Shown: positions 18,702 to 38,878 of the stretch, in pieces | Position numbering within the stretch: position 1 is the first letter of the stretch | Layout of the letters: each line of letters begins with the position of its first letter | DNA from: an uncultured Rikenellaceae bacterium | Lineage (GTDB): Bacteria > Bacteroidota > Bacteroidia > Bacteroidales > VadinHA17 | Length of the DNA stretch: 64,000 nucleotides | Direction: 5' to 3' | NCBI GenBank assembly: GCA_964633195.1 | Contig: CAZWFL010000009.1 | Span: forward strand, 14,679-78,678 | Translations under genes and position numbers: made by a program | Notes under the pieces: generated by a model | What the model was told of the DNA's origin: nothing | What the model saw: only the letters and a program-made list of their open reading frames with translations | The model's database searches: none

Positions 18702-21700
18702 ATGAAAGAGAAACTTGCAAAGGAGGCGCATGTCTCGGAGCGCCTCATGAAAATGCTTTCAGGGCTTATGATCGCAATCTTTCTGATTGTGAGCGGAGCC
18801 ATGAATGTCTCAGGTGCTTCAGGTACGGATCAGCAACAGGTTACCGTATCAGGTATGGTGACCGATGCATCAACAGGTGATCCGATGCCCGGAGTCAACG
18901 TTATTATTAAGGGAACCACACTGGGAGCTCTTACACTGGGTGACGGGAGATATACACTTACTGTCCCCGACCGCGATGCCACACTCGTGTTTTCGTTCAT
19001 CGGGTACGATACCAGGGAGGAGCTTATTGCCGGAAGGACGACAATTAATGTCACTCTCACTTCCACCACAACCGCCCTCGACGAGGTGATTGTTACAGGT
19101 TACGGAACACAGAAAAAAAGCGACCTTACCGGATCTGTTGTAAGGGTGACAATGGATCAGAAGGCAACCCTGGCAAACGTCAACCTTTCCCAGGCTCTGT
19201 CGGGAGCATCTGCCGGAGTTAATGTACAGGCATCCGGTCTTGCGGGAAGCGAACCGAGCCTTGCAATCCGTGGCCGTACCTCATTGTCGGCAAGCGACAG
19301 GCCGCTCATAGTCCTCGATGGTATAATCTACAATGGTGCAATAGCTGACATCAACATTAATGATGTGGAATCGATAGATATCCTGAAAGATGCCAGCGCA
19401 GCAGCAGTTTATGGTTCAAGATCTGCCAACGGGGTTATGATTATCACCACTAAAAAAGGACAATCGGAAAAGCCGGTGATATCATTCAACATGTATTACG
19501 GATATCAGGATATGACCAACAACCCGATGAGGGTTATGAATGCCGAGGAGTATGCCATCAGGCTGACAGATTATTACTATCAGCAGGATCTGTATACATG
19601 GTACAAAACAATGCCGACCAGCGATGCCGGAAAACCTGTAAGGCCGGATGTTACAAACCGTGAGGTTGTTGCCGCCAGGCTGAGGTCTCAGGAAGAAAGA
19701 GATAATTATATTGCCGGTAATGAGATCGACTGGGTAAAGGAAGTTCTGCAGATAGCACCTATACAGAACTATAACCTTAACGTCTCCGGCAGATCCGCAA
19801 GATCGAGTTACTATTTCTCAGGATCATACACAGACGAGGAAGGAATTCAGCTTAATGACCAGTTCAGCAGGATAACCCTTCACACCAATCTCGAAAGTAA
19901 AGTGACCGACTGGCTCACCGTGGGTTTAATCTCTTCCTATTCATTCAGGGACTATTCGGGTATTGAAGCCAGTCTTGGAAATGCAAGGTCGTGCAGCCCG
20001 CTGGCAGATAACAAGATAGGCCAGCCCGATTACGACATGTATCTAACAGGCGAGGTCTATATGACATACCCTCTTGTTTATTTGTTTATTAATAATAAGG
20101 ATATCAGGAATAACCTGTTCCTTGTCGGTAATGCAAAGATCACTGTTCCGTGGATACAGGGACTCACTTATGAATTCAACTACTCTAACACCTATTCAAA
20201 CAGGAACAATTTCACCTTCTACCCTGTTACAACACCCGGCGGGGTAACCAACAAGGGTCAGGCTGTGAAAAATCCCTCGGAGGAGCGGAACTGGATATAT
20301 AACAACATTGTAACCTATCTGCGTAGTTTCGGCGATCACCAGATAAATGCAACACTTCTTTACAGCCGCGAGAGCCGTAATGCACAGAGCTCAACGCTTA
20401 CGGCGACAGGTTTTGAAAACGAGGTGCTGGGTTATAATAATATGGGTCTTGGTACACTTAGTACCGTTTCTTCATCAGCATGGGAAGAGAACAGCCTTTC
20501 ATACATGGCCCGCGCCAATTATTCTTTCAAGAGCCGCTATCTGCTCACAGCAACTGTACGCCGCGATGGCTTTTCGGGATTTGGCGCCACCAATAAGTTC
20601 GCAACCTTCCCTTCTGTATCAGTCGGATGGGTCGCATCTGAAGAGTCATTCCTGAGAGATGTGAGATGGCTATACCTGAAGCTGAGAACCTCATACGGGA
20701 AGAATGGCAACCAGGGGATAGGACGTTATTCAAGCTTCTCGCGAATGACTGCCGAGCCGTATGTTTACGGACCTGCTACCTTTATCGGTGTTTATCCCAG
20801 CACACTGGGAAATGCCAGCCTTAGCTGGGAAGCAACGTCATCATTCAACGTCGGGATAGACTTTGGACTGTTCAACAGGAGAATATCAGGATCATTGGAT
20901 CTTTACAAGGCCACTACCACCGATGTGCTTGTAAGCCGTGCACTTCCTCCCACAAGCGGGTATGCAAGCGTCTGGACAAACATAGGTGCGATTGAAAACA
21001 AAGGATTTGAGCTGGAACTGAGATCGGTCAATCTTACCGGTCAGCTTGGCTGGCAGACAGACTTCATCTTCTCTCTCAACAGGGATAAGATCACAAAGCT
21101 TTATGGTGACGAGAACGACAGGGACATCGGAAACTCATGGTTTGTAGGAGAACCAATCAGTGCCATCTACGATTATGAGATGGCCGGAGGGCTCTGGACT
21201 GAAGCCGAACTGTATGCAGGACAGACATATAATAACTGGTACCCCGGTCAGTATAAATATGTTGACCAGAATGGTGACGGTGTTATAGAACCGACAAACG
21301 ACAGGAAGATAATCGGATACACAACGCCGAGCCACAGGTTCAGTATTAATAACAGTTTTGACTACAGGAATTTCACCTTCTCCTTCTTTTTTAATGCCGT
21401 TCAGGGTGGCAAGAAGTATTACCTGGCAAACAATGCATCGGTTGTCAACGTCGATTGGCGTTCCGATAACGTTCTCAGGATAAATGCTTCTGCAGTCCGT
21501 CCTTACTGGAGGCCCGACAATGGGGTTGATAATGCGACAGGAGTTTATAACTCACCGGCTGTGTCGAGCGGTATTTACGAAAGCAGGAGTTTTGTCAGGC
21601 TGCAGGATGTATCTCTTACATACCGGCTTGGTCCGGCAGTTCTCAACTTACTGAATGTGGAGGCTGCGCAGTTCTATGTTGCCAGCAAGAACCCATATGT

Positions 21701-21794
21701 ATGGACCAAGTGGTCAGGCTGGGATCCTGAAACAGGCACCAGCAACAGCCCCTTGATGAGAAACATAACCGCAGGTTTCAGACTTACGTTCTAA
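18702..21794 (+). CDS. SusC/RagA-family TonB-dependent outer-membrane transporter
   Basis: 1030 aa. CarboxypepD_reg-like VTVSGMVTDASTGDPMPGVNVIIKGT. TonB-box region DEVIVTGYGTQKKSDLTGSV. Plug IDILKDASAAAVYGSRSANGVMIITTKKG. Terminal ...AGFRLTF. The start may instead be MKMLSG at 18747. Confidence 0.9.
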   Translation: MKEKLAKEAHVSERLMKMLSGLMIAIFLIVSGAMNVSGASGTDQQQVTVSGMVTDASTGDPMPGVNVIIKGTTLGALTLGDGRYTLTVPDRDATLVFSFIGYDTREELIAGRTTINVTLTSTTTALDEVIVTGYGTQKKSDLTGSVVRVTMDQKATLANVNLSQALSGASAGVNVQASGLAGSEPSLAIRGRTSLSASDRPLIVLDGIIYNGAIADININDVESIDILKDASAAAVYGSRSANGVMIITTKKGQSEKPVISFNMYYGYQDMTNNPMRVMNAEEYAIRLTDYYYQQDLYTWYKTMPTSDAGKPVRPDVTNREVVAARLRSQEERDNYIAGNEIDWVKEVLQIAPIQNYNLNVSGRSARSSYYFSGSYTDEEGIQLNDQFSRITLHTNLESKVTDWLTVGLISSYSFRDYSGIEASLGNARSCSPLADNKIGQPDYDMYLTGEVYMTYPLVYLFINNKDIRNNLFLVGNAKITVPWIQGLTYEFNYSNTYSNRNNFTFYPVTTPGGVTNKGQAVKNPSEERNWIYNNIVTYLRSFGDHQINATLLYSRESRNAQSSTLTATGFENEVLGYNNMGLGTLSTVSSSAWEENSLSYMARANYSFKSRYLLTATVRRDGFSGFGATNKFATFPSVSVGWVASEESFLRDVRWLYLKLRTSYGKNGNQGIGRYSSFSRMTAEPYVYGPATFIGVYPSTLGNASLSWEATSSFNVGIDFGLFNRRISGSLDLYKATTTDVLVSRALPPTSGYASVWTNIGAIENKGFELELRSVNLTGQLGWQTDFIFSLNRDKITKLYGDENDRDIGNSWFVGEPISAIYDYEMAGGLWTEAELYAGQTYNNWYPGQYKYVDQNGDGVIEPTNDRKIIGYTTPSHRFSINNSFDYRNFTFSFFFNAVQGGKKYYLANNASVVNVDWRSDNVLRINASAVRPYWRPDNGVDNATGVYNSPAVSSGIYESRSFVRLQDVSLTYRLGPAVLNLLNVEAAQFYVASKNPYVWTKWSGWDPETGTSNSPLMRNITAGFRLTF

Positions 21795-21820
21795 AAGATC
21801 AGTCAGAGAAAGAAAAATGA

Positions 21821-23569
21821 ATGATTATGAAACCAGAAAAATTATATAAGATGAAAAAATATTTCGATATTCTCAGCAAAAAGAGTCTGTTAATAGCGGG
21901 TACTCTGCTGCTAATGTTTTCTTCGTGCGACGAAAGTGTCCTCGATGAGGTGCCTCTTGACTTCCTTGCCCCGGAGAACGCCTATACTACTGTGGCGGGT
22001 GTAAGGCAGGGTATCACCGGACTGCACTATACATTCCGCAATTACTGGTTCTGGGGCGATCAGGACCAGGGTAGCATGTGGAGGGGTGTCGGGACCGATG
22101 TGGCATTTCACGGTGAGGACCCGAACAGCACAAGATTCCTTTGCAACTATGTTAACTACCTTATCCCGGCCTCCAACTATGTCCTGCAATACTGGACCAG
22201 GAATTATGAACTGATCCAGAGGGCTAATGTGCTGGTTGACAGGATAGATAACTCTGATCCTGCAATGTGGGCCAGCGAAGCACAAAAAAATGCTTTCAAG
22301 GCTGAAGCCATGTTCTTCAGGGCTTATGCATACCGTATCCTGGTATCATATTTTGGCGATGTGCCCCTGGTAACAGAAGTTATCAATTCAGCCAAAACAG
22401 ATTTTGTCAGAGCGCCTAAAGCTGATGTATACAAGCAGATAGAGGATGATCTGATATATGCAGGCGCAAACCTTCCGGGCCGTCTGCAGGAGGAGGCTCC
22501 GGGAAGAATCACCAAAGCGGCGGCCCTTACGGTCCTCAGTGAGATTTATCTTGAGCAGGGTAAATACCAGCTGGCAGTTGATGCAGCAACTTCGGTAATA
22601 ACAGGGGCCGGATATGCACTCATGACAGACCGTTTCGGTGCCCAGATTGATGTTTTCGGAACAGCCGATGCTTACTATGACCTTTTCAGGTACGGAAACC
22701 AGAACCTTGCAGAAAATACCGAGAACATCTGGTCAGTCCAGTTTGAACCGCTTATTGAAGGAGGAGGCGCCTGGCAGGGTGAAAGAGGAATGGGCCCCGC
22801 TTATTTCAGATGGGGCAATACCCCTGATGGTGTAAAAGCATTCCGCGGCGAATTTGTTAATGGTGTATATACCGGGTATTCTGATACACTGGGACGTCCT
22901 GTTTCATGGGTGCGGCCTACCACATATGTAACACACCACATATGGGCAGACAACTGGGACACGGATATCCGTAACGCGAAGCATAGTATAAAAAGGGATT
23001 TCTATTATGACAATCCGGCATCGGTGTGGGACAAGCAGAAGCTTGAATTCAGCCAGTTTGCTGCAAATTATGCCGCAGGCACAAGGGATCCGGTCAGGGA
23101 TTCCTGCCAGTATATATTCCCCTATTTCATGAAGTTCGCAGATCCATGTAACCATTTTGACCGGGCCCACCAGTCGGGAGGAGGATACAGCCATAAGGAC
23201 GTTTACGTGATACGTCTGGCTGAGACCATACTTCTGCGGGCGGAAGCTTATCTGGGACTGGGACAGAAGGATCTGGCGGCTGCAGATATAAATCTTGTCA
23301 GGAACAGAGCCCAGGCAACACCGGTTGAGGAGGATGATGTCACAATTGAGTATATCCTCGATGAGAGAGCAAGGGAGCTGTACGGAGAGGAGTGGAGGCA
23401 CATTACCCTTCGAAGGGTCGGGTTGCTCGTTCAGAGAGTAAGAGCTCTGAATGATAACCCGAAGAACCCGGGACTAAATATACAGGATTATCATGTGCTC
23501 TGGCCTATTCCTCTGAGCCAGATCGATTTGAATATTGATGCTGTAATAACACAGAATCCGGAGTACTAG
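21821..23569 (+). CDS. SusD/RagB-family outer-membrane lipoprotein
   Basis: 582 aa, immediately downstream of the SusC gene. Lipobox MFSSCDE. TPR-like SusD blocks FFRAYAYRIL, LLRAEAYLGLG and ERARELYGEEWRH. Alternative start at 21851. Confidence 0.85.
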   Translation: MIMKPEKLYKMKKYFDILSKKSLLIAGTLLLMFSSCDESVLDEVPLDFLAPENAYTTVAGVRQGITGLHYTFRNYWFWGDQDQGSMWRGVGTDVAFHGEDPNSTRFLCNYVNYLIPASNYVLQYWTRNYELIQRANVLVDRIDNSDPAMWASEAQKNAFKAEAMFFRAYAYRILVSYFGDVPLVTEVINSAKTDFVRAPKADVYKQIEDDLIYAGANLPGRLQEEAPGRITKAAALTVLSEIYLEQGKYQLAVDAATSVITGAGYALMTDRFGAQIDVFGTADAYYDLFRYGNQNLAENTENIWSVQFEPLIEGGGAWQGERGMGPAYFRWGNTPDGVKAFRGEFVNGVYTGYSDTLGRPVSWVRPTTYVTHHIWADNWDTDIRNAKHSIKRDFYYDNPASVWDKQKLEFSQFAANYAAGTRDPVRDSCQYIFPYFMKFADPCNHFDRAHQSGGGYSHKDVYVIRLAETILLRAEAYLGLGQKDLAAADINLVRNRAQATPVEEDDVTIEYILDERARELYGEEWRHITLRRVGLLVQRVRALNDNPKNPGLNIQDYHVLWPIPLSQIDLNIDAVITQNPEY

Positions 23570-25066: not shown

Positions 25067-25904
25067 TCAAGCCTGCCATTACGCCACGAAAATACCCTAT
25101 CGATTCTGCTATTCCTGCAAGCGGATCGTTCATGTCCTTGCCATATTCAAGACTGCATGTGCCACTGTATTTTATATCGCGCAACATTCTGAAAAACTCC
25201 GGAAAGTCGATGATACCCCGTCCGGCCTCCACACACCACCCTGCCTTCTCCGGCTTGTCAACATCCCAGATATGAAAATCGTATATCCGGTCCCGGTATT
25301 TTAATGTGTCTTCAAAGGGGTCTTCGCCCAGTCTTACAGAGTGTGCAATGTCGAGACAAAATCCTATCCGGGGGTCAAGGTCTTTTATCTCCTTCCAGAC
25401 ATCGCCGGCACCCGGATAAAGCGGCAGGTCGGGACCGTGGTTATGTATAGCGAGCCGCATGTCATATTCCTTCACCTTTCTTTCGACATAAGGCAGAAGA
25501 GGAACATCGGGAACCCCTACCATCAGGCTGACACCAACCCTGCGGGCATAGGCAAAAGCCTGATCCACAGCCTCCCGGCTGCGCATATAGACAGGTCCGA
25601 CCCCATATGGCTCCACGCCGAATGATCTCATTTTTACGAGTGTCTGATCAATGACCTCCTGTGTGCTGTTGAGCGGCAGATGAAAATCCTTGACCCCAAG
25701 GTATTTCACCCCAACCCTTTTCATCATTTCCAGTGACTGGTTAAGAGGGATCTTTGCAAATGAATAGCCGGCTATTGCCAGGCTGGATGGCATATCGGCG
25801 CCGGCTGAAGCTGCCTGAAGCGGACTACTGTCAATAAACGGCAGACCGGCAGCAACAATCCCTGCCCCGGTCGTCCGGATAAAAGTGCGTCTGTTTAATA
25901 TCAT
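25059..25904 (-). CDS. Tat-signal xylose isomerase-like TIM-barrel protein
   Basis: 281 aa. MILNRRTFIRTTGAGIVAAGLPF. LAIHNHGPD and CLDIAHS metal-site motifs. Confidence 0.75.
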   Translation of the reverse strand: MILNRRTFIRTTGAGIVAAGLPFIDSSPLQAASAGADMPSSLAIAGYSFAKIPLNQSLEMMKRVGVKYLGVKDFHLPLNSTQEVIDQTLVKMRSFGVEPYGVGPVYMRSREAVDQAFAYARRVGVSLMVGVPDVPLLPYVERKVKEYDMRLAIHNHGPDLPLYPGAGDVWKEIKDLDPRIGFCLDIAHSVRLGEDPFEDTLKYRDRIYDFHIWDVDKPEKAGWCVEAGRGIIDFPEFFRMLRDIKYSGTCSLEYGKDMNDPLAGIAESIGYFRGVMAGLNG

Positions 25905-25962
25905 AGTATTGATTGTTAATATGTTATATTTTTCCCTTTGAATGAATAGCTCAAAGGTCAGT

Positions 25963-26083
25963 GCTCAGAGCTCAGAGCTCAGAGCTCAGGGCAAAAAGAA
26001 CTCTGTGGCCTGGTTCGTTTGCCCTGCCCTGTGCCCTGCGCACCGTGCCCAGCCGTCGTCCCGATAAATCGGGACTATGGCTG
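25963..26083. repeat. Composite spacer: (GCTCAGA) x4, GCCCTG-rich stem and GTCCCGATAAATCGGGAC hairpin
   Basis: Heptamers at 25963-25990. cagggcaaa pairs with tttgccctg. Nested hairpin cagcc...gtcccgataaatcgggac...ggctg at 26050-26083. The spacer lies between two co-oriented minus-strand genes. Confidence 0.8.
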
Positions 26084-26100
26084 ACAAAGCCTGTGCCCTG

Positions 26101-27423
26101 TTACCATTTAAAATACTTCTCCCGTACCGGTATATCCAGCATGGCCGAGGCTGCATTGTCACCAATGATCTCTTCTGTCTCCGGGTTCCATGTCAGTTTT
26201 GACCCTGTTTTAATGGCAATCAGTCCGAGCTGACACATAGATATTGTTCTGTGTGCAGTCTCGAGAGGTTCAATTGACTCTCTTCCTTCCCTGATTGCAG
26301 TAAGAAAGTCTTCCTTGTCCGTCAGCAGGTTGCTGTATGAAACCTCTCCTTTACCCGGTGGTGTATCGATCATTTCCTGAGAGCTTGCCGTGATTTTATC
26401 GGGGTACTCAACCTCAACCCAGCCTCCGGTTCCTTCAAATCTGACGTATGGGCGTTCTATTTTATAAAATACCTCCACGCCGTTTGCGAACAGGTACCTG
26501 ATATCAAACCTGTTAAGAGTATTCCAGAGGCCTTTGTCGAATTCTCCCTCTCCCTCAATACTCACAGGACCTGTATATTCTGTATTGTTGCCCCATTGGA
26601 CGATACCCATCAGGTGGGCTCCCCAGTTGGAAATCATGCCGTTGCAATAAGAGTCCACACGCATCCATCCGGGACGTCCGTATGCTTTGATGGCGTGTAC
26701 TCTCTTTTCCGTATAGGGTGCCTCCCATGCCGGCCCCAGCCACATATCGTAATTGAGTCCGGCAGGGACAGGCATTGTGGGTTCGGGTGAGAGAGCCGAC
26801 CCCGACAATTCAGCGGGTACTGCAACAAAAATCCTCCCGATCTTTCCTATTCTTCCGTTGCGTACAATCTCAATAGCCCTGCTGAAGGCAGGCAATGGCC
26901 TGAACTCGCTGTCGTTACGGGTAACGATCTTGTACTTTTTGACTGCTTCCACGAGTTTCTGCCCATGTACGATGCAGGTTGAAATTGGTTTTTCCAGCGA
27001 AACATGTTTCCCTGCACGGGCTGCCTCAACAGTCATTGGTACATGCCAGTGATCGGGAGTGGCGATCATCACCGCATCCACATCCTTCCTGAGAAGAACT
27101 TCCCGGAAATCGCCAAGGGCATCACACCCTTTGTAAACGGATCCTTTCTGTTCAGAGTAAAAATCATTTACCTGTTTTCTTCCGTTCTCAAGCCTCCATG
27201 CATCAACATCGCATACTGCAACAATCTGCGCATGATCCGACTTCAGGAATTGAGGTATGTTTGGATTAACAGTCTGCCTTCCGAGGCCAATAACCGCAAC
27301 ATTGATCCTGTTCGACGGAGCAGCTTTACCAGTTACATATGAAGGTATAATATAAGGCAGGGTAAATGCACCGGCTGTTCCCATTACAGTTTTCCTGATA
27401 AATGTTCGTCTGCTTTTATTCAT
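26101..27423 (-). CDS. Tat-signal Gfo/Idh/MocA-family oxidoreductase
   Basis: 440 aa. MNKSRRTFIRKTVMGTAGAFTLPY. Rossmann start INVAVIGLGRQ. Conserved EKP (VSLEKPIS). Confidence 0.8.
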   Translation of the reverse strand: MNKSRRTFIRKTVMGTAGAFTLPYIIPSYVTGKAAPSNRINVAVIGLGRQTVNPNIPQFLKSDHAQIVAVCDVDAWRLENGRKQVNDFYSEQKGSVYKGCDALGDFREVLLRKDVDAVMIATPDHWHVPMTVEAARAGKHVSLEKPISTCIVHGQKLVEAVKKYKIVTRNDSEFRPLPAFSRAIEIVRNGRIGKIGRIFVAVPAELSGSALSPEPTMPVPAGLNYDMWLGPAWEAPYTEKRVHAIKAYGRPGWMRVDSYCNGMISNWGAHLMGIVQWGNNTEYTGPVSIEGEGEFDKGLWNTLNRFDIRYLFANGVEVFYKIERPYVRFEGTGGWVEVEYPDKITASSQEMIDTPPGKGEVSYSNLLTDKEDFLTAIREGRESIEPLETAHRTISMCQLGLIAIKTGSKLTWNPETEEIIGDNAASAMLDIPVREKYFKW

Positions 27424-27477
27424 TTCTCTTTACGCTTAATTTATTTTATGATCCGATAAAGGTATATGAGTATCTGG

Positions 27478-27549
27478 AATCAATTATTCCCTTCTTCGCT
27501 TTCGCGTAGCTTCAGCGAAGCAAAGTAGGGTTAGGACAAATAATTGATT
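27478..27549. repeat. 72-bp hairpin element with AATCAATTATT / AATAATTGATT arms
   Basis: 11-bp perfect inverted arms at 27478-27488 and 27539-27549. They enclose a GTAGC-loop hairpin (cttcgctttcgcgtagcttcagcgaagcaaag). The arm sequence recurs at 33153-33196. Confidence 0.8.
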
Positions 27550-27799
27550 TTCACGCATTATATTATTTCTATTATTCATAACCGATATTAATCTAAAGAT
27601 AAATCAATTCGTTATTAAATATATGAGGTTTCATTTCTTTTTTGCGTCTGACAGAGTGATCCGGACTGAGTATTATAAATCGCTTTCCATTAATTGTTAA
27701 ATGTAGTTAAAGAGTTTGTAATCTCTTCGATTATACATACCTTTAGTAGATGTTATAATCTTATTCAATTCATTCACTATTGCCCTAAATCCCAAAGAT

Positions 27800-28783
27800 A
27801 TGAAGAGACTATCCATTTCGAGACGCAGATTTCTGGGTACTGCAGCTGCAGCTGCAGCAGTTACGGTATTGCCTGTCAATTATTCATTTGCTGTCGGCAC
27901 CCAGACAAAGAAACCCGATTCAAAGGTCGGAGGTGTTCAACTTGGCTGCACAACCTACAGTTATCGCAGCATGTCGATGAAAGTTGACGATGTTATCCAG
28001 TATCTCCTTCTTGCCGGCATCAACTCCATTGAGCTAAGGAGTGTTGCTGAAGAGGACCTTGGTATTCCTTCGGCAGGAGGGGGACGGCCGAGAGCGGATA
28101 TGACCGAGCAGGAGAAGGCTGAGGCTGCAAAAGCAGCTGCTGCTGCAAGGGAAGCCCAGCGCCAGTGGCGTCTTTCACTTCCTATGTCGAGGTATGAAGA
28201 TATGCGCAGGAAGTTCAACAATGCAGGTATAAATATCCATATAGCTAAGTTTGCGCCTGCTGCATGGAGCGATGAGGAGATTGACTATGCCTACAGGGCA
28301 ACGAAAGTGCTTGGCGCTTACGGGATAACAGATGAGATAGGCGAGGAAGCCTGCCAGCGAATGGGTAAGTTTGCCGAAAAGCATAACAGCCTTGCAATAT
28401 TTCACAACCACGCACAGCCTGCAGAACCAGGCTTTTCATTCGATAAGTTCCTGGCCTATTCGCCTGCCAACAGGCTCAATTTTGATGCGGGGCACTATTT
28501 CGGAGCTACCGGTATTCATCCGAATACTATTATTGAAAAGTATCATGACAAGATGTCAAGCATTCATATAAAAGATAAAACCGGTCCAAAGAGTACACCG
28601 GCAAATGCCAACATGCCTTTTGGAGAGGGAGAAACACCCATTGCCGACATTCTGCTGTTGCTGAAGAAAGAAAAATGGCCGATCAATGTGGATATTGAAC
28701 TTGAGTACCGTATCCCTGAAGGCTCAGATGCAGCCAGGGAGACTGCAAAATGCATCGAGTACATGCGGAATATTCTGGAGTGA
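27800..28783 (+). CDS. Tat-signal xylose isomerase-like TIM-barrel protein
   Basis: 327 aa. MKRLSISRRRFLGTAAAAAAVTVLP. IFHNHAQP, HIKDK and DIELEY motifs. An Ala/Glu-rich insert (EKAEAAKAAAAAREAQRQ) is unusual for the family. Confidence 0.7.
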   Translation: MKRLSISRRRFLGTAAAAAAVTVLPVNYSFAVGTQTKKPDSKVGGVQLGCTTYSYRSMSMKVDDVIQYLLLAGINSIELRSVAEEDLGIPSAGGGRPRADMTEQEKAEAAKAAAAAREAQRQWRLSLPMSRYEDMRRKFNNAGINIHIAKFAPAAWSDEEIDYAYRATKVLGAYGITDEIGEEACQRMGKFAEKHNSLAIFHNHAQPAEPGFSFDKFLAYSPANRLNFDAGHYFGATGIHPNTIIEKYHDKMSSIHIKDKTGPKSTPANANMPFGEGETPIADILLLLKKEKWPINVDIELEYRIPEGSDAARETAKCIEYMRNILE

Positions 28784-28842
28784 TGACAGAACTGTTTTAC
28801 ATGTTTTTAAGATTTATTTAACCTGACATAATAGCAAATATC

Positions 28843-30309
28843 ATGGCAATGAAAGTATCAAGACTTGATTTCTTAAAGACGGCCGGTCTTGCAACAACGG
28901 GTGTTGTGCTTGGCGGAAAGGCCTCAGCAAATGTCGTTCGTCCTGAAATCATACCTCCGGAAGCAGTTCAGGGGACGGGACGCAAGGTAAATATGGCCCT
29001 GATCGGAATAGCGAATCAGGGAGCCGGTATTGCCAGGCAGTTTATAAACTCAGGACTTGCCAATGTGGTTGCCGTATGTGATGTGGACCTTGATGCCAAG
29101 GGGTGTCAGGATACCATCAAGCTGGCCCCTAAGGCAAAGCAGTTCAGGGATTTCAGGGTTATGTTCGACCAGATGGCCGGTGATATCGAGGCTGTACAGG
29201 TAGCTATACCCGATTTTGCCCATTTCCCGGTTTGCATGGCTGCAATGCAACTTGGTAAGCATGTTTTTGTTGAGAAGCCGATGACCCGTACATTTCTTGA
29301 GGCAGAGATAATGGCAAGGATGGCTGAGAAGAATCCAAAGCTCGTAACGCAGGTTGGCAACCAGGGGCACTCGGGAGAGAATTACTTTCAGTTCATTGCC
29401 TGGAAAAATGCCGGAATAATTAAGGATGTGACGGCCGTAACAGCTCATATGAACGGATCCCGCAGATGGCATCCCTACGACCCCAACATAACCAGGTTCC
29501 CCGAAGCACAGCCCTTACCGCCGGGTATGACAGATAAAGACTGGGATACATGGCTCACCACAGCAGCATATCACGACTTTAACGAGAAGTATCACCCGGG
29601 TAACTGGAGAGGATGGTATGATTTCGGCCTCGGGGCTCTGGGCGACTGGGGAGCTCATATCCTTGACACGATACATGAGTTTCTTGAGTTAGGATTGCCT
29701 TATGAAATTGATCCGGTGCATGTTAAGAACCTGAATGATTTCTTCTTCCCGCTTGAGTCAACCATTCTGTTCCGTTTCCCGAGCCGGGGAGACATGCCAC
29801 CTCTTGATATCACCTGGTATGATGGTGTTGAGAATCTTCCTCCCTTTCCCGAAGGATATGATTCTGTAAGTGCCACGGTTGATCCCAACATACCGCCTCC
29901 CGGGGGTGTGCCGGCAAAGGCTGCTCAGCCAAGAAGGCCGGCATCGGGCAAGATCATTTACAGCAAGGAGCTGACCTTCAAGGGTGGCACACATTCAGCG
30001 CCTCTTTTCATAATACCTGAGGCGAAGGCCAGGGAGATTGCTCCTAAGCTTCCGGCTGTACCGGAGAGTCCGTCGAACCACTATGTGAATTTCCTGAGAT
30101 CGTGTCTGGGTCAGGAGAAGCCGCGTTCACCATTCCCGGTCTTTGCGCCGTTGTCACAGCTATTTTCACTGGGTATTATTGCGATACGCCGCAACAAAAA
30201 GCTGATCTTCAATCGTGAGACGAAGGAGATCATCAATGATCCGTTTGCGAATGCGATGCTGGCAGACAGGCCTCCGCGGAAAGGATGGGAGAGCTATTAC
30301 AATATCTGA
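28843..30309 (+). CDS. Exported Gfo/Idh/MocA-family oxidoreductase
   Basis: 488 aa. N-terminus MAMKVSRLDFLKTAGLATTGVVLG is Tat-like but has a single Arg. VNMALIGIANQG Rossmann start. VFVEKPM. Confidence 0.75.
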   Translation: MAMKVSRLDFLKTAGLATTGVVLGGKASANVVRPEIIPPEAVQGTGRKVNMALIGIANQGAGIARQFINSGLANVVAVCDVDLDAKGCQDTIKLAPKAKQFRDFRVMFDQMAGDIEAVQVAIPDFAHFPVCMAAMQLGKHVFVEKPMTRTFLEAEIMARMAEKNPKLVTQVGNQGHSGENYFQFIAWKNAGIIKDVTAVTAHMNGSRRWHPYDPNITRFPEAQPLPPGMTDKDWDTWLTTAAYHDFNEKYHPGNWRGWYDFGLGALGDWGAHILDTIHEFLELGLPYEIDPVHVKNLNDFFFPLESTILFRFPSRGDMPPLDITWYDGVENLPPFPEGYDSVSATVDPNIPPPGGVPAKAAQPRRPASGKIIYSKELTFKGGTHSAPLFIIPEAKAREIAPKLPAVPESPSNHYVNFLRSCLGQEKPRSPFPVFAPLSQLFSLGIIAIRRNKKLIFNRETKEIINDPFANAMLADRPPRKGWESYYNI

Positions 30310-30343
30310 TCAGGTTCTTGTGATACGGAAAGAGATAGAATAA

Positions 30344-31051
30344 ATGAACTGCAAATCATTACTCCTGTTCCTGGTTCTCATCTGCCCCTTTACGCTACTT
30401 GAAGGACAAAAAAATCCAAAGAGAATCACAATAACCGGTACCGTATCGGATGTAAACAAAAATCCAATTCCTGGTGCCGTTATCTTTGTCGATAATGTCA
30501 AAACCGACGTGAAAACAGACCAGCGAGGCTTCTATCGTATAAGAGTGAATTCTGATGCAGAAGAGATTCTTGTCTTTACACTTTTTAACGGCGTGGCCGA
30601 ACAGGAGATCAAAGGACGCAGATCAATAGATTTTATCCTCAGCAATGATGCAGATGCATCTGGTGACAGAGCTAAAATCGCTGATGACGAGGCTGTTAAT
30701 GTTGGTTATGGCACAATTCAGAAAAAAGATATGACCACACAGTCCCAAAAGATCGATACCCGGGACCCTTCATTTGCATCCTACCAGACGATCTACGATA
30801 TGATAAGGGGACGGTTTCCCGGCGTGGAGGTCTCAGGAAAAAGCATAAGAATTACCGGAGCATCATCACTTAATGTAAGCACTGAGCCTCTTTTTGTTGT
30901 CGACGGCGTAATCGTTAAGAGCATCGATGAAATTTCTCCCCAAAACGTTAAATCAATAGAAGTACTGAAGGGACCGGCAGCAACCGCTTACGGAACCAGA
31001 GGTTCAAACGGCGTGATAGTGATCACCAGGATGACGGGGAAAGACAGATGA
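30344..31051 (+). CDS. Stand-alone SusC N-terminal module (CarboxypepD_reg-like + TonB-box + partial plug), no beta-barrel
   Basis: 235 aa with a signal peptide. It aligns by eye with residues ~47-253 of the SusC at 18702: ITITGTVSDVNKNPIPGAVIFVDN, DEAVNVGYGTIQKKDMT and VKSIEVLKGPAATAYGTRGSNGVIVITRMTG. It ends where the barrel would begin. Confidence 0.7.
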   Translation: MNCKSLLLFLVLICPFTLLEGQKNPKRITITGTVSDVNKNPIPGAVIFVDNVKTDVKTDQRGFYRIRVNSDAEEILVFTLFNGVAEQEIKGRRSIDFILSNDADASGDRAKIADDEAVNVGYGTIQKKDMTTQSQKIDTRDPSFASYQTIYDMIRGRFPGVEVSGKSIRITGASSLNVSTEPLFVVDGVIVKSIDEISPQNVKSIEVLKGPAATAYGTRGSNGVIVITRMTGKDR

Positions 31052-33087
31052 ACGGATTTGCATGTGAAAGAAAAATAATGAGGATAATTTCATTTTTCAT
31101 CTTAATATCCACAGCTTCCTTAGGTTCAGCCCTGGCACAAAATGAAACCGATGTGATCAGAGGATGGCTGATGCACACCGATGCCGGAAATTCTTTTTAT
31201 AATCATCTGTCCGGTCAGGCTTACGATCTGCTCGATAAACGCTCAGAAGAGACAGGAAAGCTTAAAACACCCGATGACTGGCAGCAACGTCAAAACTTCA
31301 TCCGCGAAACACTGATGAACATTGTCGGACCCTTCCCTGAGAAAACACCTCTTAATGCCAGGGTGGTAAGTACAATTAACAAGGATAGCTACAGGATAGA
31401 ACACGTAATCTTCGAATCACAACCGGGATTTTTTGTGACATCCTCTCTTTTCATCCCTGCAGGCATGAAGCGGAATACCCGGCTTCCTGCAGTTATCTAC
31501 TGCAGCGGACACTCTGCCGAGGGCTACAGAAGTGCCGTATATCAGCATGTTATCCTGAATCTTGTAAAGAAAGGATTCATTGTATTTGCTTTTGATCCGG
31601 TCGGGCAGGGAGAGAGACTTGAATATTTCGATCCGGAGACCGGCAGATCAACTGTAGGAGGTCCGACCCGCGAACATTCATATCCGGGTGCACAGGCTTT
31701 CATAACCGGTAGTTCGCAAGCCCGTTTCATGATATGGGACGGTATAAGGGCCGTCGATTACCTTTTGTCCAGAAAGGAGGTGGATCCTTCAAGAATAGGT
31801 ATAACAGGACGCTCGGGCGGCGGGACACAATCGGCATATATTGCTGCATTTGATGAACGGATCAGTGCCTCGGCTCCGGAGAACTACATTACCAACTATA
31901 CCAGACTCCTCCAGTCAATAGGCCCGCAGGATGCGGAACAGAACCTCTTCAATATCATAAGGCACGGACTCGATCATCCTGATTTCCTTATTGTCAGAGC
32001 ACCGAAGCCCTGCCTTATGATAACGACATCAGGAGATATGTTCAGCATACAGGGAGCCATCGAGACAGAAAGAGAGGTGTCACGGATATATAATGCGTTA
32101 GGTGCGGATGATAATTTTTTACGGGTAGAGGATGATGCAGGCCACGCTTCAACATTGAAGAACAGGGAAGCAATGTACGCTTTCTTCCAGAATCATTTAA
32201 AAAATCCTGGTAATCCCCAAGACGAAGATACACAGCTTCTTACTGCGGAAGAATTGCGCGTTACCATTACAGGCCAGGTTTCCACATCACTGAAAGGGGA
32301 GACGGTATTCTCTGTCAACAGGAGATCTGCTGAGTTGCTCGAAGAAAATCTGTATCATCTGAGAAAGAATCCCGGGGAGTTTCTCCCGGGTGTGATCATT
32401 GCCGCCAGAAAGCTTTCCGGGTATAGACATCCGGATGGTGTTGATGAACAGGTTTTTACGGGACGTTTGCAGAGAGAGAATTATTCAATCGAAAAATATT
32501 TTGTCAGGGGAGAAGGTGATTATGTAATTCCTTATCTGTTTTTCAGACCTGAGGAGCACAATGGCAAATCAATGATTTATCTTCACCCGGAGGGCAAATC
32601 TGCAGAGGCTGGAGTGGGAGGCGAGATAGAAAAATTTGTAAATCAGGGCTTTACCGTTCTGGCCCCCGACCTGGCAATTTCAGGAGAAATGTCTCAGGGA
32701 ACCCTGAAAGGTGATGCATATTTCGACGGGGCATCTCATAATCTGTGGTACGCATCAATACTCACAGGGCGCTCCATAACAGGAATTCTTGCAGGGGATG
32801 TTGTCAGACTGGCAATGATCCTGAAAAAAATGGCAGGTAATACTGAAATTACCGGTTTTGCCGTAAAGGAGATGGCTTCTGTGTTACTGCATGCAGCAGC
32901 ATTCTGCGAAGATATCGGCAAAATTATTCTCCCGGAACAATACACTACTTACAGTGATCTGGTAATGAATAGGTTCTATAATCCTCATCTGGTTCTGTTG
33001 GCTGTTCCCGGAGCCCTCAGGGAGTATGACCTGCCCGACCTGGCCATTGCTCTTGGCCCTCGCCTGAAACCCGATGCTATGCAATAA
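31048..33087 (+). CDS. Secreted two-domain alpha/beta hydrolase (acetyl-xylan-esterase-like N-half)
   Basis: 679 aa. ATG 31048 overlaps the upstream stop (ATGA). The alternative ATG 31078 gives signal peptide MRIISFFILISTASLGSALAQ. Nucleophile elbow GRSGGGTQSAY and DDAGHAS His. Paralogue of 1528-2934. Confidence 0.65.
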   Translation: MNGFACERKIMRIISFFILISTASLGSALAQNETDVIRGWLMHTDAGNSFYNHLSGQAYDLLDKRSEETGKLKTPDDWQQRQNFIRETLMNIVGPFPEKTPLNARVVSTINKDSYRIEHVIFESQPGFFVTSSLFIPAGMKRNTRLPAVIYCSGHSAEGYRSAVYQHVILNLVKKGFIVFAFDPVGQGERLEYFDPETGRSTVGGPTREHSYPGAQAFITGSSQARFMIWDGIRAVDYLLSRKEVDPSRIGITGRSGGGTQSAYIAAFDERISASAPENYITNYTRLLQSIGPQDAEQNLFNIIRHGLDHPDFLIVRAPKPCLMITTSGDMFSIQGAIETEREVSRIYNALGADDNFLRVEDDAGHASTLKNREAMYAFFQNHLKNPGNPQDEDTQLLTAEELRVTITGQVSTSLKGETVFSVNRRSAELLEENLYHLRKNPGEFLPGVIIAARKLSGYRHPDGVDEQVFTGRLQRENYSIEKYFVRGEGDYVIPYLFFRPEEHNGKSMIYLHPEGKSAEAGVGGEIEKFVNQGFTVLAPDLAISGEMSQGTLKGDAYFDGASHNLWYASILTGRSITGILAGDVVRLAMILKKMAGNTEITGFAVKEMASVLLHAAAFCEDIGKIILPEQYTTYSDLVMNRFYNPHLVLLAVPGALREYDLPDLAIALGPRLKPDAMQ

Positions 33088-33152
33088 AATCATTACATTT
33101 AAAGCATAATATGACTATCGAATATTAATAATATAGAATAAGTATGTATCAT

Positions 33153-33234
33153 AAAATCAATTATTTGCCCCGACCCTAACTGGAGTAATTGATTTTCTTC
33201 GCACCCTTTAGGTAAGGGGTAAACGAAGAAAATC
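33153..33234. repeat. Two overlapping hairpins sharing the GATTTT segment
   Basis: aaaatcaatta (33153-33163) pairs with taattgatttt (33186-33196). gattttcttcg (33191-33201) pairs with cgaagaaaatc (33224-33234). The two stems compete for 33191-33196. Confidence 0.7.
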
Positions 33235-33322
33235 AGTGGAAGCAGATTATTCAATTCGGGTAATCATAAGAGAATAATTAAACACTATAGGCTGAATCAA
33301 TTTAAATTCAATAACATTGTTT

Positions 33323-34372
33323 ATGAATAAAACCATCAGGCGCCGCGATTTCATAAAGAACGCCGCTGCGGGAGCAGCAACTGTAACCCTTTCGCCTTAC
33401 CTGCTCCGGGAAGAAATCCGGGAAGTTCAAAAAGGCCTCAGGGTGGGCATAATAGGGCTTGACACTTCTCACAGTACGGCCTTCACCAGGGTGCTGAACG
33501 ATCCGTCGGCAGGACCGGAGTTCGGAGGATACAAAATTGTTGCGGCTTATCCGCAGGGAAGCCTTGATATTAAATCGAGTGCCGACAGAATTCCCGGCTA
33601 TACCGAAGATGTGAAGAAGCTGGGCGTTGAAATTGTAAACTCAATAGATGAACTTCTTGAAAGAGTTGATGTGGTTCTTCTTGAGACAAATGACGGACGC
33701 CGTCATCTGGAACAGGCTGTTCCTGTAATGAAAGCAGGGAAAAGAATGTTCATAGATAAACCCATAGCAGCATCTCTCGAAGATACCATTGCAATATTTG
33801 AACTTGCAAAGCATTTCAATTTGCCTCTCTTTTCTTCTTCCTCACTGAGATATATCACCGGTGCAGGGGAGATCGCTGAAGGATCCCTGGGAAAGGTTCT
33901 TGGAGCCGATACCTACAGTCCGGCGACCCTAGAGAAAACACATCCTGATCTATTCTGGTATGGTGTGCACGGCGCAGAAACCCTCTTCACCCTGATGGGC
34001 ACTGGTTGTAAAAGTGTTGCGCGTACTTTTACGGATAACACGGAAAAAGTAGTAGGTATATGGAACGATGACCGCATAGGGACCTTCCGGGGAATCCGGT
34101 CAGGCAGATCAGGATACGGAGGAATTGCCTTCTGTGAGAAAGGCATCAGTTACCTGGATAAATATTCCGGATATAATCCCCTTCTGATTGAAATCGTGAA
34201 ATTCTTCAATTCAGGTATTGTACCGGTAACCAGGGAGGAGACCATTGAGATCTTTGCCTTTATGACAGCAGCCGAGGAGAGTAAATTATCAGGAGGTAAA
34301 GTCGTTCAAATACAAGATGTTATGACTCAGGCCATGATATTGGCAGAAAAGATCGTTAAAGCTAACCTGTAA
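33323..34372 (+). CDS. Tat-signal Gfo/Idh/MocA-family oxidoreductase (short form)
   Basis: The tracked ORF begins at TTG 33317. ATG 33323 gives MNKTIRRRDFIKNAAAGAATVTL. LRVGIIGLDTSH Rossmann start. FIDKPIA. Confidence 0.7.
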   Translation: MNKTIRRRDFIKNAAAGAATVTLSPYLLREEIREVQKGLRVGIIGLDTSHSTAFTRVLNDPSAGPEFGGYKIVAAYPQGSLDIKSSADRIPGYTEDVKKLGVEIVNSIDELLERVDVVLLETNDGRRHLEQAVPVMKAGKRMFIDKPIAASLEDTIAIFELAKHFNLPLFSSSSLRYITGAGEIAEGSLGKVLGADTYSPATLEKTHPDLFWYGVHGAETLFTLMGTGCKSVARTFTDNTEKVVGIWNDDRIGTFRGIRSGRSGYGGIAFCEKGISYLDKYSGYNPLLIEIVKFFNSGIVPVTREETIEIFAFMTAAEESKLSGGKVVQIQDVMTQAMILAEKIVKANL

Positions 34373-34394
34373 TAAGAAATTAAAAGTGAACAGA

Positions 34395-36086
34395 ATGAAA
34401 CCAGGCAGAAGAAGTTTCCTCAAAACAATGGGAGCAGGTGCAACCGGATTCACACTCGGTGGCTCCGCTCTTTCATTAGCCTCGTGCACCACAGTGTCAT
34501 CAAAGACTGAAGAGGACGAACAGATTCTCTTTATCGGAGATAATATTGCAGTTGCCGATACTCAATACGGAAAAGTAAAGGGTTATCAGCTCAGGGGGAT
34601 CTACTACTTTCTCGGCATACCCTACGGGGCTGATATCTCAGGTCCGAACAGGTTTATGCTTCCTCAGAAACCCAAACCGTGGGATGATGTTTTTCCCGCA
34701 GTCTGGTGGGGCAATTCAGCGCCACAGATAATGGAAGGAAGATATGCCAACAGATATTCGTCGTTTGCAGATCACTGGAATTATGATGATGTAAGCGAAA
34801 ATTGCCTCAGCATCAATGTTTTCACACCCGCAATCAACGACGGCAAAAAACGGCCTGTCATGTTCTGGCTGCACGGGGGTGGCTTTACCAACGGCAACGG
34901 TATTGAACAGGATGGCTATAACGGTGAGAATTTCTGCCGGTTTGGCGATGTGGTCTTCTGCTCAATTAACCACCGCCTCGGACCGATCGGATTCACCAAT
35001 CTTGCCGGTGTGGGAGGAGAAAAGTATTCTGCCTCGGGTAATGTTGGTATGATTGATTGTGTAATGGCTCTTGAGTGGGTAAGGGATAATATTGCCGCCT
35101 TCGGGGGAGATCCGGATAATGTGACGATAATGGGACAATCGGGAGGAGGAGCCAAAGTAACCACTCTTACTGCGATGCCTTCAGCAAAAGGGCTCATTCA
35201 TAAAGCCGTTGTGCTGAGCGGTGCCGGTACCAGATCGGGAGATAAAGAGTATTCAGAAAAGCTCGGGGCTTATGTCCTTCAGGAGGCCGGACTTACTCCC
35301 GGGCAGATAGATAAACTGCACGAAATGCGCTGGCTGGAATATATACAGCTGGCCAGCAGGGCTTCAGCAAAGCTGGCAAAAGAGTCGGGTCCGGCAACCG
35401 GAGGTATGAGACGCGGATTTAATCCTGTAGTTGACGGAATCTGGCTTCCACAGCATCCATATCATCCTGAACCCACACCCGAAGCAGCAAATGTTCCGAT
35501 GCTGATCTGCTCCACCATGAATGAACAGGCACCCAGCAGGACAAATGCTGAGCTTGAGAATGTGACATTCGACCAGGTGAAGGAGTATGTTAGGGCAAGA
35601 GCAGGATTCGGGGCCGGATTCGGAGATAAAGCTTCCGAGGTGGTGGATGCTTATGCAAGAGTTTTCCCTGATAAGAAACCAATAGAGATTTGGTCGATGG
35701 TGAGCAGTAACCGTCAGGGTGTTGTAACCCTTGCTGATGCAAAATCAAAGCAGGATCCCCCCGTTTATGTTGCATGGTTCTGCTGGCAGCCTCCATTGTT
35801 CGATAACAGGATGAGGGCTTTCCATTGCAGTGATATATGCTTCTGGTATTATAATACCGATCTGATGCTGACTCATACCGGGGGAGGAGCAAGACCCAGA
35901 AAGCTATCGGAGAAGATGGCCGGCGCACTGCTTCAGTTTATGAGGAGCGGCGATCCCAATGGCGGAGGATTGCCAGCCTGGCCGCGATATACTGCTGAGA
36001 ACGGTGAAGTGATGGTGCTGGATGATGAAAGCGAGGCATTGAACGATCCCGACAGGGAAGCACGAAAAGCGTTACCAGTGATTTGA
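34395..36086 (+). CDS. Tat-signal type-B carboxylesterase/lipase
   Basis: The tracked ORF opens at GTG 34386. ATG 34395 gives MKPGRRSFLKTMGAGATG. Type-B signature FGGDPDNVTIMGQSGGG. Oxyanion-hole region WLHGGGFTNG. Confidence 0.8.
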   Translation: MKPGRRSFLKTMGAGATGFTLGGSALSLASCTTVSSKTEEDEQILFIGDNIAVADTQYGKVKGYQLRGIYYFLGIPYGADISGPNRFMLPQKPKPWDDVFPAVWWGNSAPQIMEGRYANRYSSFADHWNYDDVSENCLSINVFTPAINDGKKRPVMFWLHGGGFTNGNGIEQDGYNGENFCRFGDVVFCSINHRLGPIGFTNLAGVGGEKYSASGNVGMIDCVMALEWVRDNIAAFGGDPDNVTIMGQSGGGAKVTTLTAMPSAKGLIHKAVVLSGAGTRSGDKEYSEKLGAYVLQEAGLTPGQIDKLHEMRWLEYIQLASRASAKLAKESGPATGGMRRGFNPVVDGIWLPQHPYHPEPTPEAANVPMLICSTMNEQAPSRTNAELENVTFDQVKEYVRARAGFGAGFGDKASEVVDAYARVFPDKKPIEIWSMVSSNRQGVVTLADAKSKQDPPVYVAWFCWQPPLFDNRMRAFHCSDICFWYYNTDLMLTHTGGGARPRKLSEKMAGALLQFMRSGDPNGGGLPAWPRYTAENGEVMVLDDESEALNDPDREARKALPVI

Positions 36087-36150
36087 CCATTTTAGTATGA
36101 TGAATTCACGTACTCACCTCCCTCCTTCCCATAACACTCATTAATTAATT

Positions 36151-36175
36151 GTCATTCTGAGCAAAGCGAAGAATC
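36151..36175. repeat. GTCATTCTGAGCAAAGCGAAGAATC hairpin module
   Basis: attct (36154-36158) pairs with agaat (36170-36174). The loop tgagcaaagcga is shared with 14996-15007. The head gtcattc equals the 11-mer array unit at 39881. Confidence 0.65.
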
Positions 36176-36270
36176 TTTTAATCTTATTCGGACACTAATG
36201 AAATTTTTTTTTAAATTTATAATTGGTTAAGCACCAATAATCTTATTACTAACCTGATAATTATATAAAT

Positions 36271-37635: not shown

Positions 37636-37646
37636 TTTTTAACAAA

Positions 37647-37743: not shown

Positions 37744-37771
37744 ATAAACATTTGAATTAATTTGGTTTTTT

Positions 37772-38833: not shown

Positions 38834-38840
38834 GAGGAAG

Positions 38841-38878
38841 AAAGTTCGAAGTGCCTAAAGTTCGAAGTGCCTAAAGTT
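38841..38878. repeat. 16-bp unit AAAGTTCGAAGTGCCT x2.4
   Basis: Units at 38841-38856 and 38857-38872, with a partial unit to 38878. It differs from the 4458 unit at two positions. Confidence 0.9.

Follow-up and report, generated by a model that had tools for sequence, protein, structure and literature searches.

Domain organization of the protein encoded at 30344

SusC-type transporters are the route by which Bacteroidota import glycans. The window analyzed here, meaning the whole 64,000-nucleotide stretch of a contig from an uncultured Rikenellaceae bacterium, carries at 30344 a gene for a 235-residue protein that is homologous to the N-terminus of SusC and ends before the barrel (coordinates of its features and of its neighbors are collected in Table 1). 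By comparison with its relatives, the product is a functional, separately encoded protein that belongs to a conserved family of barrel-less SusC N-termini. We tentatively propose that the plug core of this protein works outside a barrel.

After the hydrophobic N-terminus comes G21-Q22, a pair of residues that was near-invariant among 53 aligned homologues and between which the predicted cleavage site lies. Cys14 was not conserved across the same alignment and no lipobox is present; lipoprotein anchoring of the window protein was thus ruled out and, because of the unconserved cysteine, the protein is predicted to be a substrate of signal peptidase I rather than a lipoprotein. Its C-terminus is hydrophilic, with neither barrel nor lipobox.

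Pfam matched CarbopepD_reg_2 at residues 30-90 and Plug (PF07715) at residues 128-224. The latter match covered profile positions 3-107 of 107 and scored 46.5 bits, the gathering cut-off being 23.9. The sequence-only reading had described a half plug; on this end-to-end match the plug domain is whole. In NCBIfam, the SusC/RagA model TIGR04056 was matched only at profile positions 1-207 of 981 (E = 3e-37), with a whole-protein score of 128.4 bits that lies below the curated cut-off of 368.25, and the SusC/RagA signature model TIGR04057 gave 41.7 bits, below its cut-off of 46.2. No dedicated Pfam or NCBIfam model matched the barrel-less protein.

The AlphaFold2 model had a mean predicted local distance difference test score (pLDDT) of 74 and a predicted TM-score (pTM) of 0.42. 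It shows an Ig-like N-terminal extension (NTE, residues 27-100, pLDDT ~85-92), a disordered linker that carries DEAVNVGYG (residues 102-133, pLDDT <50) and a compact plug (residues 135-230, pLDDT ~80). Because the linker falls below a pLDDT of 50, its ExVN[IV]GYG motif would be constitutively exposed. When the model was compared with the PDB by Foldseek, the NTE matched the crystal structure of the BT3090 SusC NTE (9hfj, target TM-score 0.78), and the plug matched ButC (8ypu), BT3090 (8aa4), BT1763 (8aa0) and BtuB. HMMER and Foldseek together related the plug core to the plugs of SusC, RagA and BtuB.

The end of the protein (...VIVITRMTGKDR) is equivalent to ...ITTKxGK in BT3090 and BT1763 and to ...NIITKK (K147) in FepA. 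This FepA numbering agrees with the residues named in PMC12940499, where K147 lies on the plug and D158 on the barrel of FepA. By these alignments, the 235-residue protein ends with the last plug element before the barrel, so that the earlier statement that it stops exactly where the barrel would start proved correct.

The gene is intact and under purifying selection

BLASTP aligned residues 7-233 of the window protein with residues 18-254 of the complete SusC encoded at 18702 in the same locus (29% identity, E = 2e-21). This colinearity, already seen in the sequence-only reading, is far above chance as judged from the alignment, in which DEAVNVGYGTIQKK of the window protein pairs with DEVIVTGYGTQKK of the SusC and the ...GVIVIT strand with ...GVMIIT. 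Since identity to the same-locus SusC is only 29%, the gene is not a recent truncation. A recent duplication of the 5' end of the local susC was likewise ruled out, both by this identity and by the residue signature of the family described below.

A tblastn search of the window with the SusC barrel found no barrel remnant downstream of the gene (best E = 5.8), and the next open reading frame (ORF) encodes an intact AXE1-type alpha/beta-hydrolase, again as first described. This next gene is not a susD; the only susD of the window (21821) follows the full-length susC.

The length of the protein was constant among its relatives. In a word-indexed protein search, the best 120 clusters (54-100% identity) were all of 202-258 residues and nearly all of 225-247. 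One of these, P0001, is 100% identical to the window protein and is encoded, with the same neighbors, on an independent JGI contig; the 119 further clusters, of the same length, were 54-88% identical. An exhaustive search of 1.84 billion representatives returned 133 clusters at E < 1e-30, and the best 150 representatives at 50% clustering were nearly all of 205-260 residues, with no full-length SusC among them. Altogether, the end point is shared by more than 250 sequence clusters, and the length is kept down to ~33% identity.

We have then compared 79 loci, taking one genome per GTDB species, all of them from metagenome-assembled genomes (MAGs) of uncultured Bacteroidales or Bacteroidota. Their ORFs were mostly of ~211-244 residues, the exceptions being seven plug-only forms of 147-162 residues and two that are split between frames. 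The Nei-Gojobori ratio of nonsynonymous to synonymous divergence (dN/dS) was 0.10-0.22 in unsaturated orthologue pairs (for example, 0.118 between loci L002 and L008, with dS 0.48, and 0.104 between L008 and L010). The gene is therefore intact, provided with an export signal and under purifying selection.

These data bear on the explanation that the gene is an artifact of gene calling or assembly, or a pseudogene left when a stop codon or a deletion cut a susC after its 5' part. The match to TIGR04056, which is confined to positions 1-207 of 981 and scores 128 instead of 368 bits, is what such a remnant would give. Set against this are the same stop position in more than 250 clusters and 79 species-level genomes, the dN/dS values, the lack of a barrel remnant, the low identity to the local SusC, the residue signature and the identical gene on an independent contig. 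We regard this explanation as extremely improbable and, for practical purposes, refuted. The earlier judgment that the gene is not a decayed susC was thus borne out by constant length, selection and absent remnants, and no relative with a full-length susC at this position was found.

In the two frame-split loci (L083:10001-10721 and L085:10001-10727), the NTE part and the plug part of the family gene lie in two reading frames. They may be genuine pseudogenes; the alternative is that homopolymer errors of long-read MAG assembly have split them.

Genomic settings of the relatives

The window gene lies in a polysaccharide utilization locus (PUL). The typical order in this setting is susC-susD, three minus-strand genes (for an MFS transporter, a TIM-barrel protein and a GFO/IDH/MocA oxidoreductase), an AP_endonuc_2 gene whose product is exported by twin-arginine translocation (TAT), in some loci another GFO/IDH/MocA gene, and then the plug gene. 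The SusC/SusD pair was found upstream in nearly all PUL-context loci. The sole constant neighbor was the AP_endonuc_2 TIM-barrel gene, found immediately upstream in the same orientation, whether or not a GFO/IDH/MocA gene intervenes, in nearly all of ~35 PUL-context loci (a count that includes those with the lipoprotein plug-only variants described below). The order oxidoreductase gene, plug gene seen in the window recurs in L001, L002, L008, L009 and L010. No terminator-like site was found in the two short intergenic gaps, including that between the oxidoreductase and plug genes, and these two genes probably share an operon. A sigma-70 promoter scan is of little value for Bacteroidota, and only the absence of terminator sites was used here.

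Table 1. Features of the barrel-less gene and of its locus
Feature	Coordinates	Strand	Basis
Barrel-less SusC-N-terminus homologue, coding sequence, 235 aa, ATG start	30344..31051 (including stop codon)	+	ORF list, Pfam, NCBIfam
Signal peptide, residues 1-21, predicted signal peptidase I cleavage before Q22	30344..30406	+	Predicted from alignment
Ig-like NTE (CarboxypepD_reg-like), residues ~27-100	30422..30643	+	PF13715, PF13620, AlphaFold2, Foldseek
Flexible linker, residues ~101-134	30644..30745	+	AlphaFold2 pLDDT <50; low conservation, variable length
TonB-box-like motif DEAVNVGYG, residues 115-123	30686..30712	+	Alignment to SusC TonB box DEVIVTGYG
Complete minimal plug core, residues ~135-230	30746..31033	+	Pfam Plug, AlphaFold2, Foldseek, HMMER
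Complete SusC (1030 aa) and SusD (582 aa) pair, same locus	18702..23569	+	BLASTP; Pfam for SusD (21821)
TAT-exported xylose-isomerase-like TIM-barrel gene (AP_endonuc_2)	27800..28783	+	Pfam AP_endonuc_2, TAT_signal
GFO/IDH/MocA oxidoreductase gene, 34 nt upstream	28843..30309	+	Pfam
AXE1-like esterase ORF, 4-nt overlap with stop of plug gene	31048..33087	+	Pfam AXE1, Abhydrolase_7, Peptidase_S9

Downstream of the plug gene, the PUL-context loci were variable, with an esterase, DUF6057 or other large genes. An esterase gene follows directly in ~8 of ~30 such loci (L001-4, L008-10, L028, L030) and lies 2-4 kb away in four (L005, L012, L021, L076); the flanks available for the remaining loci contain none. 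Esterase adjacency is thus kept only in the closest lineages. The sequence-only reading had proposed to look for conservation of both length and synteny with the esterase: the length was conserved, and the adjacency was confined to those few loci. Its suggestion that the protein might anchor the adjacent esterase was accordingly not supported, since the housekeeping paralogues described below have no esterase either, and synteny across the 79 loci ruled out an esterase partnership as the defining link.

The start of the esterase ORF itself deserves a comment. The listed start at 31048 overlaps the plug gene in ATGA, and a second Met, at 31078, opens a typical signal peptide, MRIISFFILISTASLGSALAQ (MRIISFF...). 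In relatives, the plug gene and the start of the esterase are 100-170 nt apart, and 31078 is probably the true start here.

A second setting is of housekeeping type. In ~27 genomes the family gene, frequently present as two tandem copies, is situated between miaB and aspS; the surrounding genes are purF, a SPOR-domain gene, yebC, tadA, gdhA and dprA (as judged from their ORF translations), and no esterase occurs in the neighborhood. Tandem pairs of ~235-residue proteins were found around 9200-10720 in L036, L038, L043, L044, L046, L050, L051, L053, L055, L057, L058, L060, L065, L073 and L075. Copy 2 retains a well-conserved DE.[VI]DIGYG; in copy 1 of most pairs the motif has degenerated, and seven of these copies read GYR in place of GYG.

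The third setting comprises the 147-162-residue plug-only variants, which occupy the PUL slot after the TIM-barrel gene in seven genomes (L077-L082 and L086; for example, L077:9887-10333 and L080:2490-2933). A canonical lipobox, L-[IVF]-S-C, is combined in them with a K/E-rich linker of ~35 residues, and the NTE and the TonB-box motif are lacking. Their plug core is 61-76% identical to that of the window protein, and their dN/dS of 0.06-0.19 (0.10-0.18 in pairs with dS <0.7) indicates purifying selection. The genomes that encode them also carry the miaB-aspS pair. In addition, ~15 PUL-context orthologues have kept the NTE and the plug core and have lost the TonB-box-like/GYG motif entirely (L005, L012, L013, L017-L019, L021, L028, L030, L031, L034, L040, L041, L076). 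By these alignments the motif is dispensable in many lineages.

All flank ORFs of the 79 loci (1.3 Mb) and the window were searched for a plug-less barrel gene, and none was found. The barrel-only ORFs encountered in the flanks were all cut by the locus end or by a frameshift; as these are truncations only, a dedicated plug-less barrel partner nearby was ruled out.

The gene order of the PUL setting invites the explanation that the protein is a periplasmic ligand-binding or scaffolding partner of the locus enzymes, namely the TAT-exported TIM-barrel protein, a GFO/IDH/MocA oxidoreductase or the esterase, and has no role in TonB/SusC mechanics. Its gene sits after the AP_endonuc_2 gene on the same strand and probably shares an operon with the oxidoreductase and esterase genes. 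An isolated FepA plug can reportedly bind ligand, according to Usher et al. in 2001. However, the miaB-aspS paralogues share the conserved plug core and have no such enzymes nearby, the link to the esterase is limited to some lineages, and the plug core varies too little from one paralogue to another to be a module fitted to different ligands. A partnership with these enzymes is therefore rather improbable.

Residue signature of the family

The comparison comprised 253 members of the family and the N-termini of 20 SusCs encoded in the same loci. Conservation within the family is highest in the plug core, nearly all invariant columns of the 53-sequence alignment lying within G160-I225, and the linker is weakly conserved and variable in length. 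The TonB box D-E-V-[IV]-V-x-G-Y-G was essentially invariant in the 20 SusCs. In the family, the TonB-box-like motif was relaxed to E 62%, V/I 74%, G 80%, Y 69% and G 62%, and its central residue, V in 20/20 SusCs, was N in 58%, D in 13% and S in 7% of the members; the window protein has N.

This pattern bears on the idea that the protein is purely a TonB decoy or brake. Its exposed TonB-box-like strand would titrate, together with the NTE, the cognate TonB's C-terminal domain and so damp the energization of the SusC of the same locus, the plug being merely a folded carrier. An NTE joined to a TonB-box-like motif in a disordered linker would suit such a role, as would the location in a PUL with a complete SusC and the well-conserved motif of housekeeping copy 2; the NTE has also been suggested to confer TonB specificity (PMC7782687). 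Yet the motif belongs to the less conserved part of the protein and was lost in the ~15 PUL-context orthologues and the lipoprotein variants, which are still under purifying selection. The SusC-invariant V is replaced in most members, and constraint is strongest in the plug core, a part for which a decoy would have no use. We hold a decoy to be unlikely, and the competition for TonB envisaged in the sequence-only reading is weakened: the TonB-box-like motif is relaxed relative to SusC and missing from many members of the family.

Further differences lie in the plug. The arginine of the IRG motif (position 171) was R in 20/20 SusCs; it was R in 35%, M in 25% and Q in 17% of the family, and it is Thr in the window protein. 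Position 201, D in 100% of the SusCs, was T, D or S; position 203, E in 95%, was K in 75% of the family; and position 210, D in 100%, was G in 91%. By alignment, the IRG arginine corresponds to R75 of FepA, which forms a >95%-conserved site-2 salt bridge between the plug and glutamates of the barrel, and whose replacement (R75A) abolished uptake in a spectroscopic assay (PMC12940499). On this correspondence, the arginine that locks plug to barrel is not maintained in the family. The family has instead a signature of its own, Y147, I150, Y151, D/E152, M153, P199, K203 and G210, present in 75-98% of its members and in 0-20% of the SusCs; all eight residues occur in the window protein. P199 reached 98%, and P159 and G220 were also conserved in the family.

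The same residues weigh on the alternative that the protein acts as a plug or cap in trans, its core, free or lipid-tethered, entering or covering the mouth that a SusC-type barrel opens to the periplasm, for instance once TonB has expelled its resident plug, so that the pore is resealed or gated. The only known partner of the plug fold is the lumen of a 22-strand barrel, the plug is complete, and either tether (the NTE with its TonB-box-like strand, or a lipid anchor) could keep the core near the outer membrane, where it is presumably located. Braun et al. in 2003 reportedly reconstituted Escherichia coli FhuA in vivo, its cork and barrel being exported separately. SusC particles that lack the plug, and complete ejection of the plug, have been reported or proposed (bioRxiv 10.64898/2026.09.16.752182), and these particles and the ejection model lend a cap some plausibility. 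Against a cap, a plug-less barrel gene adjoins none of the 79 loci, the resident plug of a SusC is covalently attached and would out-compete a free one, and the site-2 lock arginine and three other SusC-conserved charged residues are not retained, although this counts for little, as a reversible cap might not need them. The residues conserved specifically in the family suggest a different interface. Capping in trans, which the sequence-only reading had also raised, thus finds no backing in the gene context or in the lock arginine, and we consider it doubtful. Equally doubtful is a broader formulation, that Bacteroidales possess trans-acting plug modules, soluble and tethered through the NTE and a TonB-box-like strand or else lipid-anchored, that reversibly cap plug-ejected SusC barrels or leave them through TonB in a TolB-like manner.

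A proposed role of the plug core outside a barrel

The reading that we prefer is that the plug core is the working part of the protein and acts outside a barrel, the N-terminal half serving as tether or coupler; we put its probability at roughly 0.4. Because the plug core is the constant part of the family, it is probably the part that works outside a barrel. The plug-only variants keep only this core and remain under purifying selection, and the N-terminal half is replaceable, consisting of NTE and motif, of NTE alone or of a lipid anchor. Action outside a barrel is favored by the missing barrel and lipobox, the hydrophilic C-terminus, the unconserved lock arginine and the three other altered charged residues, and by the search of 1.3 Mb of flanks that found no plug-less barrel gene; plug-like modules also occur in the barrel-free M56/BlaR1-type proteins described below. 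The link to SusC and TonB is supported by the location of the gene in a PUL with a complete SusC/SusD pair and by the NTE fold, which equals that of the SusC NTE. The SusC NTE is essential and has been suggested to function in TonB pairing (PMC7782687; bioRxiv 10.64898/2026.09.16.752182).

The plug core would then be a protein-binding module that acts, where the outer membrane faces the periplasm, on the uptake machinery of SusC and TonB, with the N-terminal half as an interchangeable tether or coupler. In the window member, the NTE and the TonB-box-like strand could dock onto a TonB-type C-terminal domain by beta-augmentation; in other lineages, the tether would be the NTE alone or a lipid anchor. 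TolB would be the closest mechanistic analogue, with its disordered TolA-binding N-terminus through which it is pulled off its partner. We infer a periplasmic location for the protein and, in the same way, binding of TonB or of a partner of the NTE, a partner for the plug core and an effect on transport.

Several observations weigh against this proposal. The central V of the TonB box is changed to N, D or S in the family and the motif is dispensable in many orthologues, so that coupling to TonB may be weak, lineage-specific or absent. The miaB-aspS paralogues argue for a general role in the envelope, with which the PUL transporter is perhaps not involved. The argument from the residue signature is based on 20 SusC sequences, all from the same loci; the AlphaFold2 model is a single-protein model of only moderate confidence (pLDDT 74, pTM 0.42); and all family members come from uncultured MAGs and metagenomes. 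The probability left over by this proposal and the four alternatives discussed above belongs to an explanation not yet considered.

Comparison with known systems

The SusC/RagA proteins (TIGR04056; BT1763, BT3090, RagA and the SusC at 18702) show the same order of signal peptide, NTE, TonB-box region and plug. In contrast to them, the window protein has no 22-strand barrel, no adjacent susD and a score below the family cut-off. It also has shorter plug loops, N for the central V of the TonB box, and changes of the IRG arginine, D201, E203 and D210 of the neighboring SusCs. It is thus not a member of SusC/RagA on four counts, barrel, score cut-off, susD partner and lock arginine, and it belongs to the Pfam domain families Plug and CarboxypepD_reg.

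The highest-scoring long proteins of the exhaustive search, above any full-length SusC, were membrane proteins of M56/BlaR1 type. P0230, P0241, P0252, P0261 and P0266 combine NTE domains with 3-8 tandem repeats of ~50 residues, which represent the C-terminal half of a plug (PLFVVDG..I.P..I.SI.VLK..A..YG..G.NGVI.IT). P0266 also has a TonB_C domain, and P0267 has the repeats without an M56 match. For Bacteroides thetaiotaomicron, PMC10350073 notes TonB paralogues that bear M56 or CarboxypepD_reg domains. Because the M56/BlaR1-type proteins carry them, plug-derived modules are used free of a barrel in the Bacteroidota periplasm. Like the window protein, these proteins have an NTE and plug-derived modules in the periplasm and no barrel; they differ in having an M56 inner-membrane anchor and half-plug repeats, whereas the window protein is predicted to be soluble and has one complete plug.

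The periplasmic protein TolB is soluble; through a disordered N-terminal strand it binds TolA, a TonB-like force transducer, at the C-terminal domain, and it is pulled off its outer-membrane partner (PMC8928145, PMC7066135). In a force-coupled adaptor of this type, release from the partner would depend on the proton motive force; the window protein shows the exposed linker motif of such a scheme. Its likeness to the barrel-less protein would be in mechanism only, with no relationship in sequence or fold: TolB is a beta-propeller with Pal as partner, and the strand motif of the barrel-less family is dispensable in many orthologues.

Split or truncated genes for TonB-dependent transporters (TBDTs) are known from Anabaena (all2620/all2619 and alr4028/alr4029; PMC2771747). 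As here, a natural gene encodes the plug-bearing N-terminal part; the Anabaena genes, however, include a partial barrel and are followed by a gene for the remaining barrel, whereas the window protein stops at the boundary of its plug. An Anabaena-type split TBDT was ruled out, as a barrel gene follows neither the window gene nor any relative. Isolated plug (cork) domains of FepA and FhuA were reportedly engineered as laboratory constructs from these siderophore receptors (Usher et al. in 2001; Braun et al. in 2003). They too are plugs exported alone, and the barrel-less family differs from them in being natural and selected and in having an NTE and its own signature. Full-text searches on free-standing, plug-only or truncated plugs and on NTE function found, within the searchable library, no description of such a barrel-less family.

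Other features of the window

The region at 23798-39808 (with 394-1386, 1528-2934, 6104-6976 and 13906-14655) encodes many GFO/IDH/MocA oxidoreductases; among the ones that were translated, two carry TAT-type signals. The same region also encodes DUF6807, an MFS transporter, TIM barrels resembling xylose isomerase and a number of esterases (AXE1-like, COesterase, GDSL and glucuronoyl-esterase-like). Apart from an alpha-L-fucosidase at 15208, the SusC/SusD locus has no classical glycoside hydrolase, and it is reminiscent of a locus for oxidative (keto-sugar) cleavage of glycosides.

A type IX secretion cargo cluster occupies 40616-55270. It encodes Por_Secre_tail proteins at 40616 and 50731, a 1524-residue CHU_C protein (42604), a PorP/SprF protein (47325), a PD40-PKD-OmpA protein (48466) and, on the minus strand at 52109-55270, a beta-helix protein with a C-terminal sorting domain. 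It is followed at 55627-63936 by a surface-polysaccharide biosynthesis cluster with a flippase-like Polysacc_synt protein, a Wzy_C ligase/polymerase, three GT1/GT4 glycosyltransferases and a sugar-transfer-associated ATP-grasp protein. Elsewhere, a zinc alcohol dehydrogenase gene with a GTG start (8716-10065, minus strand) overlaps an Amidohydro_2 ORF (9871-10950, plus strand) by ~195 nt, and one start of this pair is probably mis-set.

Significance for glycan uptake in Bacteroidota

Annotation habitually names members of this family SusC/RagA receptors or "plug domain-containing protein", and they could easily be dismissed as fragments. The present analysis corrects this habit: the genes are real and under selection, and genomes in a clade of uncultured Bacteroidales carry several copies each. 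Their existence is somewhat surprising. They dispense with the barrel and keep exactly the parts of SusC that face the periplasm: the NTE, the TonB-box region and the plug. Two features of SusC are unexplained, namely the role of the essential NTE and whether the plug fully exits the barrel during transport, and the family offers a handle on both questions. As a natural and predictedly soluble reagent, the protein could be used to ask what the NTE and the plug bind, be it a TonB paralogue, a barrel or something else. If they exist, trans-acting plugs would be a direct handle on SusC NTE function and would represent a hitherto unrecognized level at which TonB-dependent glycan uptake is gated or guarded against leakage.

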